From NCBI GenBank assembly GCA_020381345.1, contig GCA_020381345.1_3636.1: a stretch of 64,000 bases of DNA. One strand, 5' to 3'. The stretch is from a phage. The translations under genes were made by a program, and so were the position numbers. Shown here one piece after another: positions 4,297 through 51,439 of the stretch (positions are counted from its first letter, which is position 1; the number at the start of each line of letters is the position of its first letter). Below the pieces are notes generated by a model, which worked only from the letters and a program-made list of their open reading frames with translations, was not told the DNA's origin and ran no database searches.

Positions 4297-4560
4297 ATGA
4301 AACGTCTTGATCAGCTTAAACTAGTTCAGTACATGGCCTACAAAGTTCTTGAAGTCCAAAAAGGTAGCAAAAAAGAGGTTTGCGAGAAAGCATATAAGAT
4401 CTTTACCCGTAAAAAAGATGATTGGATGTTACGCCAGACTAAAAAAGCCGATATCTTGGGGTACCTGGAAGAAGAGATCCGACTTGAAGAGCAAGAAGAG
4501 ATCCGTCGCAGTGAGGCAGATTATCAGGCAGCTTGGGAAAACTGGATGAGTAACAAATAA
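4297..4560 (+). CDS. hypothetical protein (87 aa)
   Basis: Track ORF 4213..4560 starts at an upstream alternative codon; ATG at 4297 follows RBS AAAGAGGTAAACATC. Confidence 0.55.
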   Translation: MKRLDQLKLVQYMAYKVLEVQKGSKKEVCEKAYKIFTRKKDDWMLRQTKKADILGYLEEEIRLEEQEEIRRSEADYQAAWENWMSNK

Positions 4561-4705: not shown

Positions 4706-5125
4706 ATGAGCATTAAATCTAATAATCCGGCATATAGCTTTGATAACGCTTTTTGTCACGGTCCGGCGGCGAAAGGATTCGAAATCGATGGTAAACTAAT
4801 TATTGTCAATGTTGACGGGGAAGAGGTTGCAGTATATCCGGTGGCAGACGTAAAAAGCCGTTTACAATGCCGCATTGATGTTACCGCCTATCAGCTTGAT
4901 CCGGTCCGCATAGTTGCCCTGGTCCTGGAAGAAGAAATTAAAGCCATGCACCATAGCAACAGGTTTATTGGTGACGCACAGGATAATATGAAGGTATGCC
5001 GCCATAAAGTTAATGAAGTGCTTAAAGAATATGGCTTTAAAGATCTGATGATCAAACGTGAGGAAAAATTCCGCTACCGTAACGACCTGGCAAATCGAAT
5101 CTATGAAATATACGAATCATTATAA
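4706..5125 (+). CDS. hypothetical protein (139 aa)
   Basis: ORF with RBS AAGAGGTAAAAACACC-ATG; last plus-strand gene before the non-coding region. Confidence 0.55.
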   Translation: MSIKSNNPAYSFDNAFCHGPAAKGFEIDGKLIIVNVDGEEVAVYPVADVKSRLQCRIDVTAYQLDPVRIVALVLEEEIKAMHHSNRFIGDAQDNMKVCRHKVNEVLKEYGFKDLMIKREEKFRYRNDLANRIYEIYESL

Positions 5126-5143
5126 TTTCTTAACTAAACTATC

Positions 5144-5172
5144 AGGGGCTTTAAAAGGTCCCTTTCTTTTTG
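5144..5172 (+). terminator. putative rho-independent terminator
   Basis: Imperfect stem AGGGGC/GTCCCT followed by TTCTTTTTG. Confidence 0.45.
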
Positions 5173-5776
5173 TCTGTATTTCTCCTACCACAAACGGCCC
5201 CACCTGGCAAGTGGAATAATTGACTAGCCATCAATCCCACACACTGTACAAATATACATGTAAAATAGCTATTGCATAATCTTTCATTGTGTGGTAGCAG
5301 GGCCATTTTTACACGTTTTTCCTTCCAAAATTGCACGTAATGCAGCTATTGCACAAAATTTAACCTGATGCATATCTTCAGTGTCTTGTCAACAACTAAA
5401 AATCTTTATAAGTCATACACTTACACAACCACAAAAGCGTGTTCTACGTGAAAAATCGGGTATAACTATAGCCACTAAATTCCAGAATTCACGTAGCGTC
5501 ACCATTCTATAGTCTGCTAAGCATTTATTCCAACCATAGAATAACGGAATAGTCAATACCTGCATAAAATAATTATTCGTTTAAACTGCATAACATAAAT
5601 CAGCCAGGGTGTCAACATTTTTCGTAAACAGTCCGAAATTGTCACGGTAAGTTATCATAAACAGAGAAATCTTTAGTCGTCTAATGTTTACTGTACATTA
5701 CTATACTGACTGGAATCATTAGATGACTAAGAGAAAGATAAGAAACAATTAACAGTCTAATTATATTAACGATAAC

Positions 5777-6051
5777 AATAACAGCGGTTAAAGTCATGGC
5801 GCGACGGAGTCGCGACATAATAACACCGAGTAACCCTCACCCCCGTGAGCGTTGCGAATGTTATTATGCCATGACTAAATCATTTCAACACGTAACTATA
5901 GGCATAACAACATTCCCTCGGTGTTATTATGTCGCTAGTTATTATATAACTGTTAACAATAACGCCTCGGGAATAGTTCTGCCTGCACGATGTTTATAAC
6001 AGCAAGTTATGATCAACATTTCACAGATTATAATAACAGCGGTTAAAGTCA
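5777..6051. repeat. 20-bp direct repeat AATAACAGCGGTTAAAGTCA, two copies
   Basis: Identical 20-mers at 5777-5796 and 6032-6051. Confidence 0.7.
5812..5935. repeat. perfect 19-bp inverted repeat flanking an 86-bp loop
   Basis: GCGACATAATAACACCGAG (5812-5830) is the exact reverse complement of CTCGGTGTTATTATGTCGC (5917-5935). Confidence 0.7.
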
Positions 6052-6709
6052 GGCGTAGAAACAGTGGAAGTGTAAACAGTCAATCATGTAAATGATAAGT
6101 ATGTGAACAGTTATCCATGTAAACTATTAGACATGCAAACAATCAGGTGTGCAAAAGTGTCAAGGGTGTCACCAGTATGTCAGACAAGTTTTCCTCCTCT
6201 TTGTCAAGTGCTGCATGAAAAATTTACAAACTGGTATGGTAGCATTTTTGCGGCCCTGTTTACATTCAGTAATGTATGTATAATCCTTGTTGTGTGGGCG
6301 TTTAGACGTCTAGACGGTTGGAAGTCCACAGGTCAATATCTAATCTATCGGCTGCTAACTATATCCCACACAAATAGTAAGAAATATAATTGTTATGCGT
6401 GTAAACAGTAACTCATGTTATCAATCCCTGTATGGATCGCCAGTGGTGCGCATAATGGGTATTATGTTAAATTGCCAGTAATGATAACTATTCTCACAAT
6501 GATAGGTATTCTCATTCCCCCACACAAGATAGGTTGCAAATGTTGTGCCACTGTGTGAACGGCCTCACCTATTAATTTGCCTCACTGCCTCGATATTTGA
6601 GAATTATTATAAGAATGAGAAGTATTCCCATTTCGTCCGCCTGGCAGCACTCCTGTAGGTCAGGTCAAAATCGGGAGAGAACTGGACCTGTTCAGATATT
6701 TCTGGCTGG

Positions 6710-7894
6710 CTCTTCAGGTCTGTGTGGGAAAAGCCGACCCCTCCGGCGGCGGGGAGGTGGTCAATTAAAAAATTTACGGGGTATATGAAGCGCTCTTCAG
6801 GTAAGGCATGTATTATGGGATGAAACCCTCTTCAGGCAATGATATTTGTGGGTGTGATATTTGCTGGAAAGCCAGATATGACGGGACTCCCGGCGGGGCA
6901 GGGGTAGTACAGACAGGGAAAATATGGGGATGTAGTTGGGTGAATTGATCGGTCAGGTAGGGTATGGAATATGTTACAGGTATGTTAAATATGGAGGGTG
7001 AATATCTGTAGGATTTGTGTGTAAAATCAAAGACTTAAGTGGTGTTGTGGTATTTTCTATAAATAATTCAAGTTTAATAGGTAATATTTGTCCCTATCCA
7101 CTTTGTGTGGTAAACAAATTCAGATGAGATTGGTTTACAAGTGTATACATAATATACAAATTAAAGATACAAGAAACCCCCCTCCCCCTTCGGCTACCAT
7201 TCACCTTTTCCTCTGACTGGTACTTAAACACTTATTCAGACTCTTCAGGTTATCACCCATATATCATATGGCAGTGACTGGTGTCCTCCGGCCCCTCTTT
7301 CGTCACCCGTCCGCTTCGCCATGCTAATGCCATAGCCAAAGGTTCGGTTGTTCACCCTGTTCACTCAGGTGTATCTCCATACCCCTTCAAACCGAAGAGA
7401 ACAGAAAACCCGAATTACTCGGTAAAAGAAAAGAGAAGAACTTAATTTTATCAGGATAGGCAAGAATGTCAAGGCATGACTGCTCACTAAACAAGCAAAC
7501 AGTCATGTGTGGGAGGTAAGTGATTGTGGTTGTAGGAAATTTAGTTGAAAGATGTGTTATAGGTGCTTCCAGCACTTTAGCCGGGCAGCTAATTGTGTGT
7601 CAGTCCAGCGGTTCATCCTCTACTTCACTGAAATCAATGTTCATGGTCTCTTCCCAACCATCGATCTCAGCACAAGAGTGGAGTTCTTTAGGGTTTACTC
7701 CCAAAGCCTCAGCAACAGAGTCTATATTTAACACCTCTGGCAGGTATGATTCATCGAATTCAAGGTAAATCAGGCCACGAGTATTGTCAGCTCCACCAAA
7801 TAGTTCTATCTTCATGAAATCTCCTTCGGAAAATGAGTGTGAACAGGATTATACGTCCCAATGCGCAGGAATTATGCACGTTTGCCTCTTCAGG
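6710..7894 (+). repeat. five same-strand copies of CTCTTCAGG
   Basis: Exact 9-mer at 6710, 6793, 6828, 7241 and 7886; copies at 6710, 6828 and 7886 are followed by TGTGGG and the one at 6793 by TGGG; two are followed by CCGGCGG(C)GGG tracts. Confidence 0.6.
7600..7815 (-). CDS. hypothetical acidic protein (71 aa)
   Basis: ORF track; strongly acidic composition. Confidence 0.45.
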   Translation of the reverse strand: MKIELFGGADNTRGLIYLEFDESYLPEVLNIDSVAEALGVNPKELHSCAEIDGWEETMNIDFSEVEDEPLD

Positions 7895-7933: not shown

Positions 7934-8146
7934 TCATAGTCTACCACCCCTGAACTCTTCGTGCTCAGGCATAATAGAGAACCAGATATCTACGATGTCT
8001 TCCCACGTTAGGTCATTAGCCTCAGGATCTACCTGGAGCGAAGATGGAGAATCTTCAGAATCGAAGTTTTCCTCTTTCACTGGCTCAGCCAAGGGACATA
8101 TAGTCACTCCTTTTGATGTCTCTTCAGATGCATGTGTGTTGATCAT
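7934..8146 (-). CDS. hypothetical acidic protein (70 aa)
   Basis: C-terminal part of track ORF 7934..8347; ATG at 8144-8146 overlaps the upstream peptide stop as ATGA. Confidence 0.45.
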   Translation of the reverse strand: MINTHASEETSKGVTICPLAEPVKEENFDSEDSPSSLQVDPEANDLTWEDIVDIWFSIMPEHEEFRGGRL

Positions 8147-8244
8147 GTTCCACCCGTGAGTATTCCGGCAACAGCCGCTATGGACGTAATGATCATCAGG
8201 ATCACCACTAAAACTTCGGACAATGTTTTCATTGTGTATTCCAT
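8143..8244 (-). CDS. small hydrophobic peptide (33 aa), not in ORF track
   Basis: Hand-translated MEYTMKTLSEVLVVILMIITSIAAVAGILTGGT; RBS GGAG 4 nt upstream. Confidence 0.4.
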   Translation of the reverse strand: MEYTMKTLSEVLVVILMIITSIAAVAGILTGGT

Positions 8245-8506
8245 ATTCTCCAAATGATGTGTGGATATTATCACTGGAGCGGTAATGTGTCAACAGAAAC
8301 GCCGCGAGGGTTTGGTTAAAATCCGAGCGTATGGTGATTTGGGTCAAAACGGACGTGCGTTCTCGCTACGCTCGAAAGAGAGATTTGTTTGTAGGCCGTC
8401 CTTAAACGCTCTATAATGAGATTATCTGCCCAAGGTATGCAATCGTGCACCAGATAAAGAAAAGGACGCCACAGAGCGTCCTAGGTGTCTTAAATTTGAT
8501 ATTTTG

Positions 8507-8818
8507 CTATACCCACGAGGGCTTATCAAGATTGGAGTAGCTGAAAGGTGTCAAAAGGTGACTGTCAAAATCTCTCAAACTATCCAAATCTTTTTCCTCG
8601 TCCTGACACCATCTGTGCCTACATTTATTGTTGTAGTGCATGGAATGCATAGCGTTCTGCAACTTAACAGGTACAAGTGATTCAGGAGTAGATAGTATTG
8701 TAGGGTATGCCAGAACCACCTCAAACAGTGGAAACACATCGAAACTAAAGTCTACCTCTGCAGAGGTTGATGGCATATAGGAGTATTTAGCCGCCTTTGT
8801 AGACATAATCCACCTCAC
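8507..8818 (-). CDS. hypothetical protein (103 aa)
   Basis: ORF track. Confidence 0.5.
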   Translation of the reverse strand: MRWIMSTKAAKYSYMPSTSAEVDFSFDVFPLFEVVLAYPTILSTPESLVPVKLQNAMHSMHYNNKCRHRWCQDEEKDLDSLRDFDSHLLTPFSYSNLDKPSWV

Positions 8819-9141
8819 ACAGGTTTGATAATACCTTCACCTAATAACTCTTCATATCTAATCTTATCCGGATCCCACTCCTGGATAATTTCGAAGACAA
8901 TATCCAACCCAGGAATAATCACTTCTCCAGTGTCAAGTTTGGCAAGAACAAAACCAGAAGGCTGAATGGTTTCCCAGTTGCGACGATTGGAATAGAAGAC
9001 CTCGAAAATATCACCGACCTTGATCTGTTGATCAAGATGTTCAAGATTCTCTTTCATATAGACGCAGCGGATTTTTCGTGCAGGCCATAGACCACCTGCA
9101 TCACGTTCATTTAGCTCTTTCACAGTGATTGGCATTCTCAT
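8815..9141 (-). CDS. hypothetical protein (about 108 aa)
   Basis: Track ORF 8815..9192 would read through an intergenic hairpin; the internal ATG at 9141 has RBS AAGGA. Confidence 0.45.
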   Translation of the reverse strand: MRMPITVKELNERDAGGLWPARKIRCVYMKENLEHLDQQIKVGDIFEVFYSNRRNWETIQPSGFVLAKLDTGEVIIPGLDIVFEIIQEWDPDKIRYEELLGEGIIKPV

Positions 9142-9193
9142 AGCTGGTTCCTTTTGCAAATAGTGAAAGAGGGGCCGTAGCCCCTCTGCCATA

Positions 9194-50499: not shown

Positions 50500-50574
50500 G
50501 CCCTGTTAGCTTAGTGGATAAAGCAGCGGCCTTCTAAGCCGTTGACACTGGTTCGAGTCCAGTACGGGGTGCCA
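50500..50574 (+). tRNA. tRNA-Arg (anticodon TCT)
   Basis: Hand-folded cloverleaf: acceptor GCCCTGT/ACGGGGT, anticodon loop CTTCTAA, T-loop TTCGAGT, encoded CCA. Confidence 0.7.
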
Positions 50575-50704
50575 AGTTCTTTTTAATGTAGCTTACTTTA
50601 GCAGAGTAAATCTTCGGCAAGTGGCGGTAACCACTTTACCGATACCTCATAGTTAGTGGTGAGAACACTAGCTATTTTAAAAAGAATTTAAATATTAGTA
50701 TTTA

Positions 50705-50792
50705 GGTGAGTTAATTCCGTAGGGGTAGCGGGGCAGACTGTAAATCTGTTATCATTGCGATTCGGGTGGTTCGACTCCATCACTCACCACCA
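50705..50792 (+). tRNA. tRNA-Tyr (anticodon GTA), long variable arm
   Basis: Acceptor GGTGAGT/ACTCACC, anticodon loop CTGTAAA, T-loop TTCGACT, CCA; 88 nt. Confidence 0.6.
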
Positions 50793-50906
50793 AATTTATA
50801 TTTTTAAATGCATAAATCATACAGATAATGGCATTGATATTTATCGTCGTTTATACTAGTCACTAACTGCTCGAAAATCAGTGTCATTATCAGTATTGTT
50901 TATAAA

Positions 50907-50997
50907 AGAGGGTAGGGAGCAATGGTGCTCAAGCGGTCTTGAAAACCGTCCCGTTGAGGATTACTCGATGATGGTTCGATTCCATTATCCTCTGCCA
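50907..50997 (+). tRNA. tRNA-Ser (anticodon TGA), type II
   Basis: Acceptor AGAGGGT/ATCCTCT, anticodon loop CTTGAAA, T-loop TTCGATT, CCA; 91 nt. Confidence 0.6.
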
Positions 50998-51095
50998 TAT
51001 TGTTGACCTTGTAATTAAGCGAAAGCCGGAAGCAGAACCGGATTATCAAATGTTACAGTCGTCATCGCCGACTAGCAACATGGTCAACATACTGA

Positions 51096-51192
51096 GCTAG
51101 GTAAGCCCTTTGGCAAGGGCGAGGATTTTTAATCCTGAAAATAGACGAGGTAGTCGTTGAATACATAGGTGGTTCGATTCCATCACCTAGCA
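51096..51192 (+). tRNA. atypical tRNA-like element (97 nt), anticodon uncertain
   Basis: Acceptor GCTAGGT/ACCTAGC, D-arm GCCC/GGGC, T-arm GGTGG-TTCGATT-CCATC, but non-canonical anticodon arm, 29-nt extra arm, A at position 8, no CCA. Confidence 0.35.
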
Positions 51193-51199
51193 CCTTTTT

Positions 51200-51275
51200 G
51201 CTGATGTAGCACAATTGGTAGTGCAATTGATTTGTAATCAATAGGTTGCAGGTTCAAGTCCTGCCATCAGCACCA
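51200..51275 (+). tRNA. tRNA-Thr (anticodon TGT)
   Basis: Acceptor GCTGATG/CATCAGC, anticodon loop TTTGTAA, T-loop TTCAAGT, CCA. Confidence 0.7.
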
Positions 51276-51276
51276 T

Positions 51277-51351
51277 GGCCCTGTAGCTGGAAGGTTCAAG
51301 CAAGCGACTCATAATCGCCAGACGGTGGTTCAATTCCACCCAGGGCCACCA
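51277..51351 (+). tRNA. tRNA-Met or Ile2 (anticodon CAT)
   Basis: Acceptor GGCCCTG/CAGGGCC, anticodon loop CTCATAA, T-arm GGTGG-TTCAATT-CCACC, CCA; D-stem weak. Confidence 0.55.
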
Positions 51352-51362
51352 AATAATGAATA

Positions 51363-51439
51363 CTCCGCGTAGCTCAGCTTGGTAGAGCGCCTGATTTGGG
51401 ATCAGGAGGTCGAGTGTTCGAATCACTCCGTGGAGACCA
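51363..51439 (+). tRNA. tRNA-Pro (anticodon TGG)
   Basis: Acceptor CTCCGCG/CGTGGAG, D-arm GCTC-AGCTTGGTA-GAGC, anticodon loop TTTGGGA, T-loop TTCGAAT, CCA. Confidence 0.7.

Follow-up and report, generated by a model that had tools for sequence, protein, structure and literature searches.

A probable genome-end junction with a 459-bp direct terminal repeat in the gene-free region of a Vequintavirus phage

We studied a 64,000-nucleotide stretch of phage DNA (contig GCA_020381345.1_3636.1; hereafter, the window) in which a gap of 2474 bp, at positions 5126–7599, separates a plus-strand gene (4706–5125) from a minus-strand gene (7600–7815, 71 aa). Our analyses indicated that this gene-free gap is probably the genome-end, or concatemer-junction, region of a Vequintavirus, whose packaged DNA would be of unit length and would have fixed ends that share a 459-bp direct terminal repeat. 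The repeat was placed at 6183–6641, where it begins GACAAGTTTT and finishes TTTCGTCCGCC, by orthology to relatives with defined ends. An initial annotation of the window had proposed that the region may hold genome ends, and this was supported both by the orthology of 6183–6641 to the terminal repeats of phages HdK5, EdH4 and Gotham and by the published statements on these phages.

The records of HdK5 and EdH4 have an exact 459-bp sequence at both ends, which maps to window positions 6183–6641, and the Gotham record has annotated repeat_region features at 1–459 and 136,567–137,025, whose two copies are identical to each other and share 433 of 459 positions with the window repeat without a difference in length. 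In all three phages the ends were defined from read ends or coverage; their virion DNA was sequenced, in two laboratories, and the repeat boundaries are identical. Korf (2019) described “short terminal redundancies of 458 bp” in EdH4 and HdK5, with the ends set where most reads stop abruptly, and for Gotham the same start was reported for all virions (Dias 2020). Additional records open at these positions. In those of Pr121LW and EcoIv14a_Aya the first base corresponds to 6183 (Aya also closes at the base before it), and in four “bov” records it corresponds to 6641. At least four laboratories contributed records with a start or an end that corresponds to 6183 or 6641. The sequence of the repeat was 90–96% identical in an alignment of the window with 16 relatives (17 genomes), the alignment used for the conservation and coding tests throughout. 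Together, the orthologous sequence of HdK5, EdH4 and Gotham has the same sequence at both ends, as in the fixed-end, short-repeat (T7-type) class, and the termini are invariant across the relatives' records, with two PhageTerm reports, discussed below, contradicting this. Short terminal repeats, of 328–342 bp, have also been reported in the related Stephanstirmvirinae.

No second copy of 6183–6641 was found within the window, and the single repeat therefore represents the junction (collapsed or circularised) form. The junction has three parts, namely right-end unique sequence (5126–6182, 1057 bp), the repeat, and left-end unique sequence (6642–7599, 958 bp). The left end of the packaged molecule would start at 6183 and its right end would finish at 6641, after a second copy of 6183–6641, so that this layout leaves approximately 1.4–1.5 kb of gene-free DNA at each end of the virion DNA. 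Transcription of both terminal gene blocks runs outward, and the blocks are closed by a terminator (5144–5163) on one side and a hairpin (7475–7507) on the other. No Chi sites that might protect the ends were found in the region. The packaging site that the initial annotation had also suggested can only be inferred, because the terminase must cut at both boundaries of the repeat.

These data bear directly on the alternative that the phage packages by a headful mechanism, with a circularly permuted genome in which the region, rather than being a fixed end, would serve as a pac site or would simply be a long spacer between genes. The rV5 genome paper treats these genomes as circularly permuted, and PhageTerm classified the bov phages as “circular permutated” and BpE1AUH as “headful (PAC)”. 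However, where a headful packager would have permuted ends and no fixed repeat at the ends of its records, HdK5, EdH4 and Gotham each have the exact repeat with the same boundaries, further records begin at the same base, and the start of Gotham does not vary among virions. In addition, the revised bov records themselves open at the repeat boundary, and a terminal repeat with twofold coverage is known in Klebsiella phage KPP-1 (see below). We therefore consider headful packaging very unlikely; the dissenting reports of circular permutation or headful packaging are a misfit with exact repeats of identical boundaries in independent isolates.

Repeat arrays and unique DNA beside the terminal repeat

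The description of the region as repeat-rich was correct, as the counts of GTAAACA-type, TGTCA and CTCTTCAGG units were all above chance expectation. The last ~150 bp before the left boundary of the terminal repeat consisted, in every relative examined, of a GTAAACA-type array followed by a TGTCA array. In the window, the first of these is a plus-strand tandem array of ~16-bp units (family D1, 6069–6150), with units at 6072, 6103, 6119 and 6135, or four in 6072–6141 versus 0.09 expected per 130 bp. By our reading of the sequences, relatives have roughly 4–12 copies at a constant position. The second is a set of phased (G)TGTCA repeats on the plus strand (6151–6182), with TGTCA at 6158, 6167 and 6178; all three fall within the 25 bp that precede 6183, versus 0.1 expected per 60 bp. 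The relatives examined, again by reading, have ~3–7 copies spaced 9–12 bp apart (about one helical turn), the last of which abuts the repeat boundary. The sequence at the left cut site, TGTCA/GACAAG (with the slash marking the cut), is a short palindrome. Arrays of variable copy number that are always found at the cleavage site would be expected of recognition sites for packaging proteins, and we regard them as putative sites of this kind.

The opposite side of the terminal repeat has an array of its own. The unique DNA adjoining the left genome end (6642–7030) is G-rich on the plus strand, with a GC skew of +0.37, and has CTCTTCAGG at 6710, 6793 and 6828; a fourth copy lies at 7241. Overall, CTCTTCAGG occurs eight times in the 64-kb window, versus 0.58 expected, and five of the eight fall within 6710–7894. 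Copies were present at equivalent positions in 16/16 relatives, either exact or with one mismatch (four relatives had one mismatched copy). Arrays therefore flank both sides of the terminal repeat in all 16 relatives, with GTAAACA-type and TGTCA units on one side and CTCTTCAGG on the other. Two further interpretations of these motifs were rejected. A role for CTCTTCAGG as a genome-wide regulatory motif was set aside, the other three exact copies falling inside minus-strand genes, and the notion that CUGAAGAG is hammerhead-like was dropped since visual inspection showed no stem II/GAAA arrangement after any of the copies and there was no Rfam hit. The fifth CTCTTCAGG copy (7886–7894) lies in the gap between the minus-strand genes 7934–8347 and 7600–7815, ~32 nt upstream of a minus-strand TATAAT (7853–7848), and CTCTTCAGG may also be a regulatory site for minus-strand transcription.

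The terminal repeat itself contains AATGAKAA-type repeats of 17–18 bp on the plus strand (6480–6630; copies at 6480, 6498 and 6614), including an 18-bp tandem repeat at 6480–6514, and these have been annotated as a repeat_region in naswa, Alma and magaca. Just past the repeat boundary, the alignment placed a 90-column insertion after 6657 in 13/16 relatives, and 6700–7150 was 85–99% identical. An AT-rich spacer follows (7031–7170, 28% GC). From ~7093 to ~7171, LL12, Mangalyan and MiataMamis have unrelated sequence in its place, with identity returning at ~7171–7172.

The right-end unique sequence is of two kinds. Its inner part (5126–5755) is AT-rich (35% GC), conserved, non-coding DNA, of which 5156–5755 had 82–97% identity to the 16 relatives in 50-nt bins, without indels, and a conserved 12-bp hairpin on the plus strand (5269–5297). 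The sequence from 5756 to 6182 was hypervariable (26–82% identity, many indels) and begins with a cassette of direct and inverted repeats (5756–6068; 26–78% identity, many indels). The cassette has ATAACA-core motifs in both orientations (eight exact ATAACA/TGTTAT matches in 5772–6038) and a perfect 19-nt inverted repeat (5812–5830/5917–5935), and is bounded by 26-nt direct repeats at 5771 and 6026. In the cassettes of relatives, copies of GGCAACTAT/ATAGTTGCC replace the ATAACA-core motif, with GGCAACTAT found in most, as if the motif had been swapped in a concerted way between lineages. The version of the cassette at 5835–6075 had no blastn match among 50,697 phage records. A resemblance between its ATAACAC-type motif and repeats that adjoin the terminal repeat of KPP-1 (4310–4560 of that locus, L030) suggests either cassette exchange or an ancestral form.

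These repeats raise the alternative that the region serves mainly as a replication origin, either as a whole or through its AT-rich left part together with the iteron-like cassette at 5756–6182; an initiator from the phage or the host would bind the repeats and melt the AT-rich DNA beside them. The DNA has a GC content of 33–39%, several families of direct and inverted repeats, and the motif swap between ATAACA-core and GGCAACTAT described above. The authors of the rV5 genome paper, in their search for an origin, also found a GC-skew change here (104,425–105,475). An origin could coexist with a genome end in the region. However, the skew changes at the point where transcription switches direction, the motifs have no linked initiator gene and no initiator was identified, and the arrays stop exactly at the cut site, which is a better fit to packaging. 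An origin as the main function is, in our opinion, unlikely.

An ultra-conserved element and its orphan promoter

The stretch at 7172–7535 was 97–100% identical in 118 records, including the lineage with unrelated sequence at 7093–7170, and its nucleotide diversity was 0.003–0.025 versus 0.02–0.08 in most neighbouring gene bins. It contains a predicted, near-consensus sigma-70 promoter on the minus strand (7472–7445), consisting of TTGACA at 7472–7467, a 16-nt spacer and TGaTAAAAT, with the -10 hexamer at 7450–7445. The promoter matched 11 of 12 consensus positions, has an extended -10 and is one of the two best sigma-70 matches in the neighbourhood. It points toward the terminal repeat, has no conserved open reading frame (ORF) downstream, and is referred to here as an orphan promoter. 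In the most divergent relative (L013, from IMG/VR), a rewritten spacer of 18 nt separates two unchanged hexamers, a pattern that would be expected if the promoter is functional.

The ~260-nt part of the ultra-conserved element that lies downstream of this promoter on the minus strand (7172–7437) contains the fourth CTCTTCAGG copy and ends in G5AG6 and then TTT (7175–7190). It is a candidate RNA or cis-acting DNA site, and the initial annotation had also named an origin and RNA genes as options, for either of which the element is a candidate. The predicted minus-strand transcript, from 7437 to ~7175, would be G-rich, with a pyrimidine 5′ end that pairs with the 3′ G5AG6 run, followed by UUU (z = -2.2). 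When 13 distinct copies of this candidate RNA were folded with RNAalifold, the covariation term was -0.31 and, with so little variation in the element, the number of compensatory pairs was 0, so that the RNA structure is unproven. An apparent compensatory change in L013 (7311/7342) was not relied on, as it depends on a single-sequence fold and is a broken pair in the consensus fold. Searches of IMG/VR with two flanking proteins identified 3 and 2 additional loci, and a metagenome scan with a 22-mer of the conserved element identified 4. These loci were few and too similar, and were thus inadequate for covariation analysis.

The element had no match in Rfam, nor any in 5,426 E. coli genomes, so no host origin was seen. 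Complementary matches of at least 11 nt between the element and the rest of the window were at chance level (16 versus 11 expected). One match of 13 nt was perfect, between 7289–7301 in the candidate RNA and 9165–9177 in the 5′ coding part of the minus-strand gene 8815–9192, and is probably meaningless because ~0.7 such matches would be expected by chance. Minus-strand RNA extending beyond the element would be AT-rich and then C-rich and G-poor (7030–6642), a composition that would favour Rho-dependent termination before the repeat.

We considered whether the region instead holds at least one non-coding RNA (ncRNA) gene, in particular for a stable, structured RNA of ~260 nt transcribed from the orphan promoter and acting in trans. 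Evidence consistent with this includes the near-consensus promoter whose hexamers were kept while its spacer was rewritten, the lowest sustained nucleotide diversity in the 5.5-kb neighbourhood, and the predicted fold with paired 5′ and 3′ ends. In addition, by eye, 3/3 clean one-sided changes in the alignment keep the minus-strand pairing, whereas 2/3 break the plus-strand pairing. Weighing against an ncRNA, no Rfam family was found even at E up to 10, there were no compensatory pairs, the 3′ end of the candidate RNA has no local terminator, no homolog was found outside the genus, and a full-text literature search for Vequintavirus transcriptome data found no transcript data. An ncRNA gene is accordingly possible and, on balance, doubtful. 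A more speculative idea, which we hold only tentatively, is that 7172–7535 is a new functional module close to the left genome end, in which the host RNA polymerase would use the promoter to make a ~260-nt structured, G-rich RNA. This RNA would prime replication via a persistent RNA–DNA hybrid of the kind known from ColE1, the T4 ori and mitochondrial CSBII, or it would couple transcription to junction cutting, as a sigma-70 version of the T7 phiOR/junction pause in a large myovirus.

Returning to the genome-end interpretation, we propose that replication would produce concatemers joined through one copy of the repeat, and that terminase would cut these between 6182 and 6183 and between 6641 and 6642, guided by the arrays beside the boundaries. 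The repeat would be duplicated by strand-displacement synthesis, as in the T7 model. The TGTCA and GTAAACA-type arrays at the left cut, whose copy number evolves fast, could be bound by the small terminase subunit or by an accessory protein, and the CTCTTCAGG array across the repeat may act similarly. The orphan promoter and the 260-nt element would send transcription toward the repeat, for junction processing, replication priming or production of a stable ncRNA. With the ends placed at the convergence of two transcription units, no gene would be interrupted. We have much less confidence in these sub-mechanisms (the arrays and the promoter) than in the genome-end explanation as a whole.

Coding tests, annotation and neighbouring genes

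Searches of the phage collection with blastn found the region in 122 records at ~90–95% identity, 97 of which cover at least 80% of the 2.47-kb query, and nearly all of these are Escherichia phages of the genus Vequintavirus (rV5-like myoviruses). The possibility of an assembly artefact, which the initial annotation had raised, was ruled out by this comparison since the region recurs in more than 100 independent genomes. The initial annotation had also located the region between convergent gene blocks, and the gene boundaries bore this out, with the true extent of the gap being 5126–7599 and not 5173–7599. Most records have no annotation in the region, and a few have scattered short hypothetical proteins or a small tandem repeat. 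In the rV5 genome paper the interval between ORF163 and ORF164 was drawn as a grey “non-coding” box without ORFs on which transcription converges.

The absence of a convincing ORF, as first described, was confirmed by tests of ORF conservation and of codon position. The longest ORF within the gap encodes 102 aa (6103–6411), and ORFs of at least 44 aa were intact in only 0–7 of the 16 relatives, with three exceptions. These were a 47-aa ORF in the terminal repeat (6415–6558; intact in 14/16), and ORFs of 54 aa (7281–7445; 15/16) and 62 aa (10/16) in the near-identical 7172–7535 stretch. Both flanking genes were intact in all relatives that possess them, and their variable sites were in excess at codon position 3 (10/11/54 and 4/4/21 for positions 1/2/3). 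The corresponding counts were flat in the gap, at 14/18/12, 3/3/3 and 7/8/10 for the 47-, 54- and 62-aa ORFs, respectively, and 55/60/54 across 5156–5755. Scans of the ten longest gap ORFs against Pfam and PHROGs gave no match.

Based on these tests, it is extremely unlikely that the region encodes small proteins that pipelines have missed or annotated inconsistently. Short hypothetical coding sequences have been annotated here in some records, with as many as 14 in MiataMamis and Mangalyan having 12, and the ORFs at 6415–6558 and 7281–7445 are intact in most relatives. However, these intact ORFs sit in DNA that is well conserved (the repeat) or near-identical (7281–7445), most other ORFs are broken in relatives, none of the ORFs scanned has a family match, there is no third-position excess of variable sites such as the flanking genes have, and the longest ORF spans the physical genome end.

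The gene blocks on either side of the gap each have a candidate 3′ structure. The plus-strand block is closed by an intrinsic terminator (5144–5163; an 8-bp stem, then a T-run), and the records of Alma, Murica, HdK5 and Gotham also have a terminator annotated at the corresponding position. On the minus strand, RNAalifold windows identified a 14-bp hairpin (7475–7507, z = -4.3) ~90 nt past the stop codon of the last gene, which is likely a 3′ end or a terminator-like structure. The 139-aa gene at 4706–5125, which ends the plus-strand block, is found in some Vequintavirus genomes and is missing in Alma, FV3, HdK5 and the IMG/VR contig L016; it also occurs, at 89–91% identity, in IMG/VR contigs L014 and L015, whose downstream DNA is unrelated. 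It looks like a mobile accessory gene, and the annotators of Murica labelled it “Rel homology domain”.

ARAGORN found no tRNA in the gap, and an Rfam 15 covariance scan found no family in the gap at gathering score and none even at E up to 10. The permissive scan gave just two chance-level hits, neither of which was in the conserved element. Elsewhere in the window, in a tRNA cluster at 50500–51439, ARAGORN called a tRNA-Ser (50907–50997) and an odd 99-nt tRNA with a 4-base anticodon (51096–51194), whereas Rfam gave a weak tRNA at 50705–50789 and a weak hit at 51096–51192.

Among the records matching the region were 19 unannotated “Campylobacter phage” GenBank records (MG0656xx, e.g., MG065644 and MG065653), at ~88–94% identity overall and ~98–99.5% within the conserved element (7165–7545). 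These records look like mislabelled or contaminating coliphage assemblies.

Comparison with other phages and significance

In architecture, the region comes closest to the T7/T3 junction, which has a 160-bp terminal repeat, the short-repeat arrays SRL and SRR, and the promoters phiOL and phiOR, with the T7 promoters near the ends doubling as secondary origins. The details of SRL/SRR and of these promoters reportedly go back to Dunn and Studier in 1983 and to Chung and Hinkle in 1990. Common to both are a short, exact direct repeat at fixed ends, arrays of short repeats in the unique sequence to either side of it, and packaging sequences near the termini; the predicted promoter here also points toward one copy of the repeat from upstream. 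In T7, sequences that serve for recognition are found close to the termini, and pausing of RNA polymerase at the concatemer junction starts maturation and packaging and recruits the terminase proteins (PMC3276506). There are also differences, as the present phage is a myovirus of ~137 kb with a promoter of the host sigma-70 type and not of the phage-polymerase type, its end genes read outward whereas the T7 early genes read inward from the left end, and its gene-free flanks are far longer, at ~1 kb each. The likeness to the T7 junction is thus architectural only.

Arrays of short protein-binding repeats also lie beside the terminase cut sites in P1 pac and lambda cosB, P1 being a headful packager and lambda having cohesive ends. 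As in these systems, several short repeats, phased at approximately one helical turn, are directly beside the putative cleavage position in the window; the arrays here are only candidate binding sites, and there is no homology to P1 or lambda.

The closest comparison outside the genus is KPP-1 (Vequintavirinae, Mydovirus), which has a 514-bp terminal repeat (116,316–116,829) defined by twofold coverage and PhageTerm. As in the phage studied here, the KPP-1 repeat is in a gene-poor stretch where plus- and minus-strand gene blocks converge. The two repeats had weak matches in reverse orientation (E = 0.001 and 0.005 by sensitive blastn and by profile). By reading, the boundaries are alike, with GTCCGYC/TRGCA at one of them and, immediately within the repeat at the second, CTCYYTTGTCAAG...AAATTTACAA. 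KPP-1 has four copies of its own 22-bp repeat family, TGATAAnnnTTATCA, the first 17 bp from the boundary that matches the left boundary in the window, and the AATGAGAAT repeats inside its terminal repeat are similar to the AATGAKAA-type repeats. The loci differ in their repeated motifs (TGATAAnnnTTATCA in KPP-1), in the length of one flank, just ~330 bp in KPP-1, and in the lack of a KPP-1 counterpart of the ultra-conserved element. These features indicate that the subfamily has kept a common architecture with different repeated motifs. Near the terminal repeat, both phages have a C6-T(T)-C5 run (3373–3390 of L030; 7175–7190 in the window), and the two runs are not obviously equivalent because they are on opposite strands relative to the repeat, the loci being reversed.

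Several points count against the genome-end interpretation. The ends of the present phage were assigned by homology alone, and some papers call its relatives circularly permuted or headful-packaged, from PhageTerm or by assumption. The region has no sequence homology to the T7/T3 junction, as blastn of the phage collection returned just Vequintavirus records, and nhmmer found no homolog of the ultra-conserved element in the KPP-1 locus. Finally, the roles of the sub-elements in binding, cleavage and transcription are putative, and the RNA structure of the element is without covariation support.

The main feature is already known, because the published repeats of HdK5 and EdH4 (Korf 2019) and of Gotham (Dias 2020) are the same element, with the same 459-bp length, boundary nucleotides, flanking non-coding DNA and arrays. 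What differs is that the ends were inferred for the present phage and that its cassette at 5835–6075 is unlike that of any deposited relative. The short direct terminal repeat of these close relatives is poorly propagated into annotations and is contradicted in some papers. As far as could be found, the ultra-conserved promoter element and the detailed anatomy of the arrays have no earlier description, and this is where the remaining novelty lies.

Most of the ~120 deposited Vequintavirus genomes, including that of the type phage rV5, were opened at arbitrary positions, and several papers assume circular permutation. The real ends lie inside the “non-coding box”, and the records could be re-oriented to 6183 and 6641. 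Terminal gene blocks that read outward, with ~1.4–1.5 kb of gene-free DNA at each end, are a notable arrangement, unlike those of T7, T5 and N4. For the engineering of therapeutic rV5-like phages, the region marks DNA that should be kept intact for packaging.

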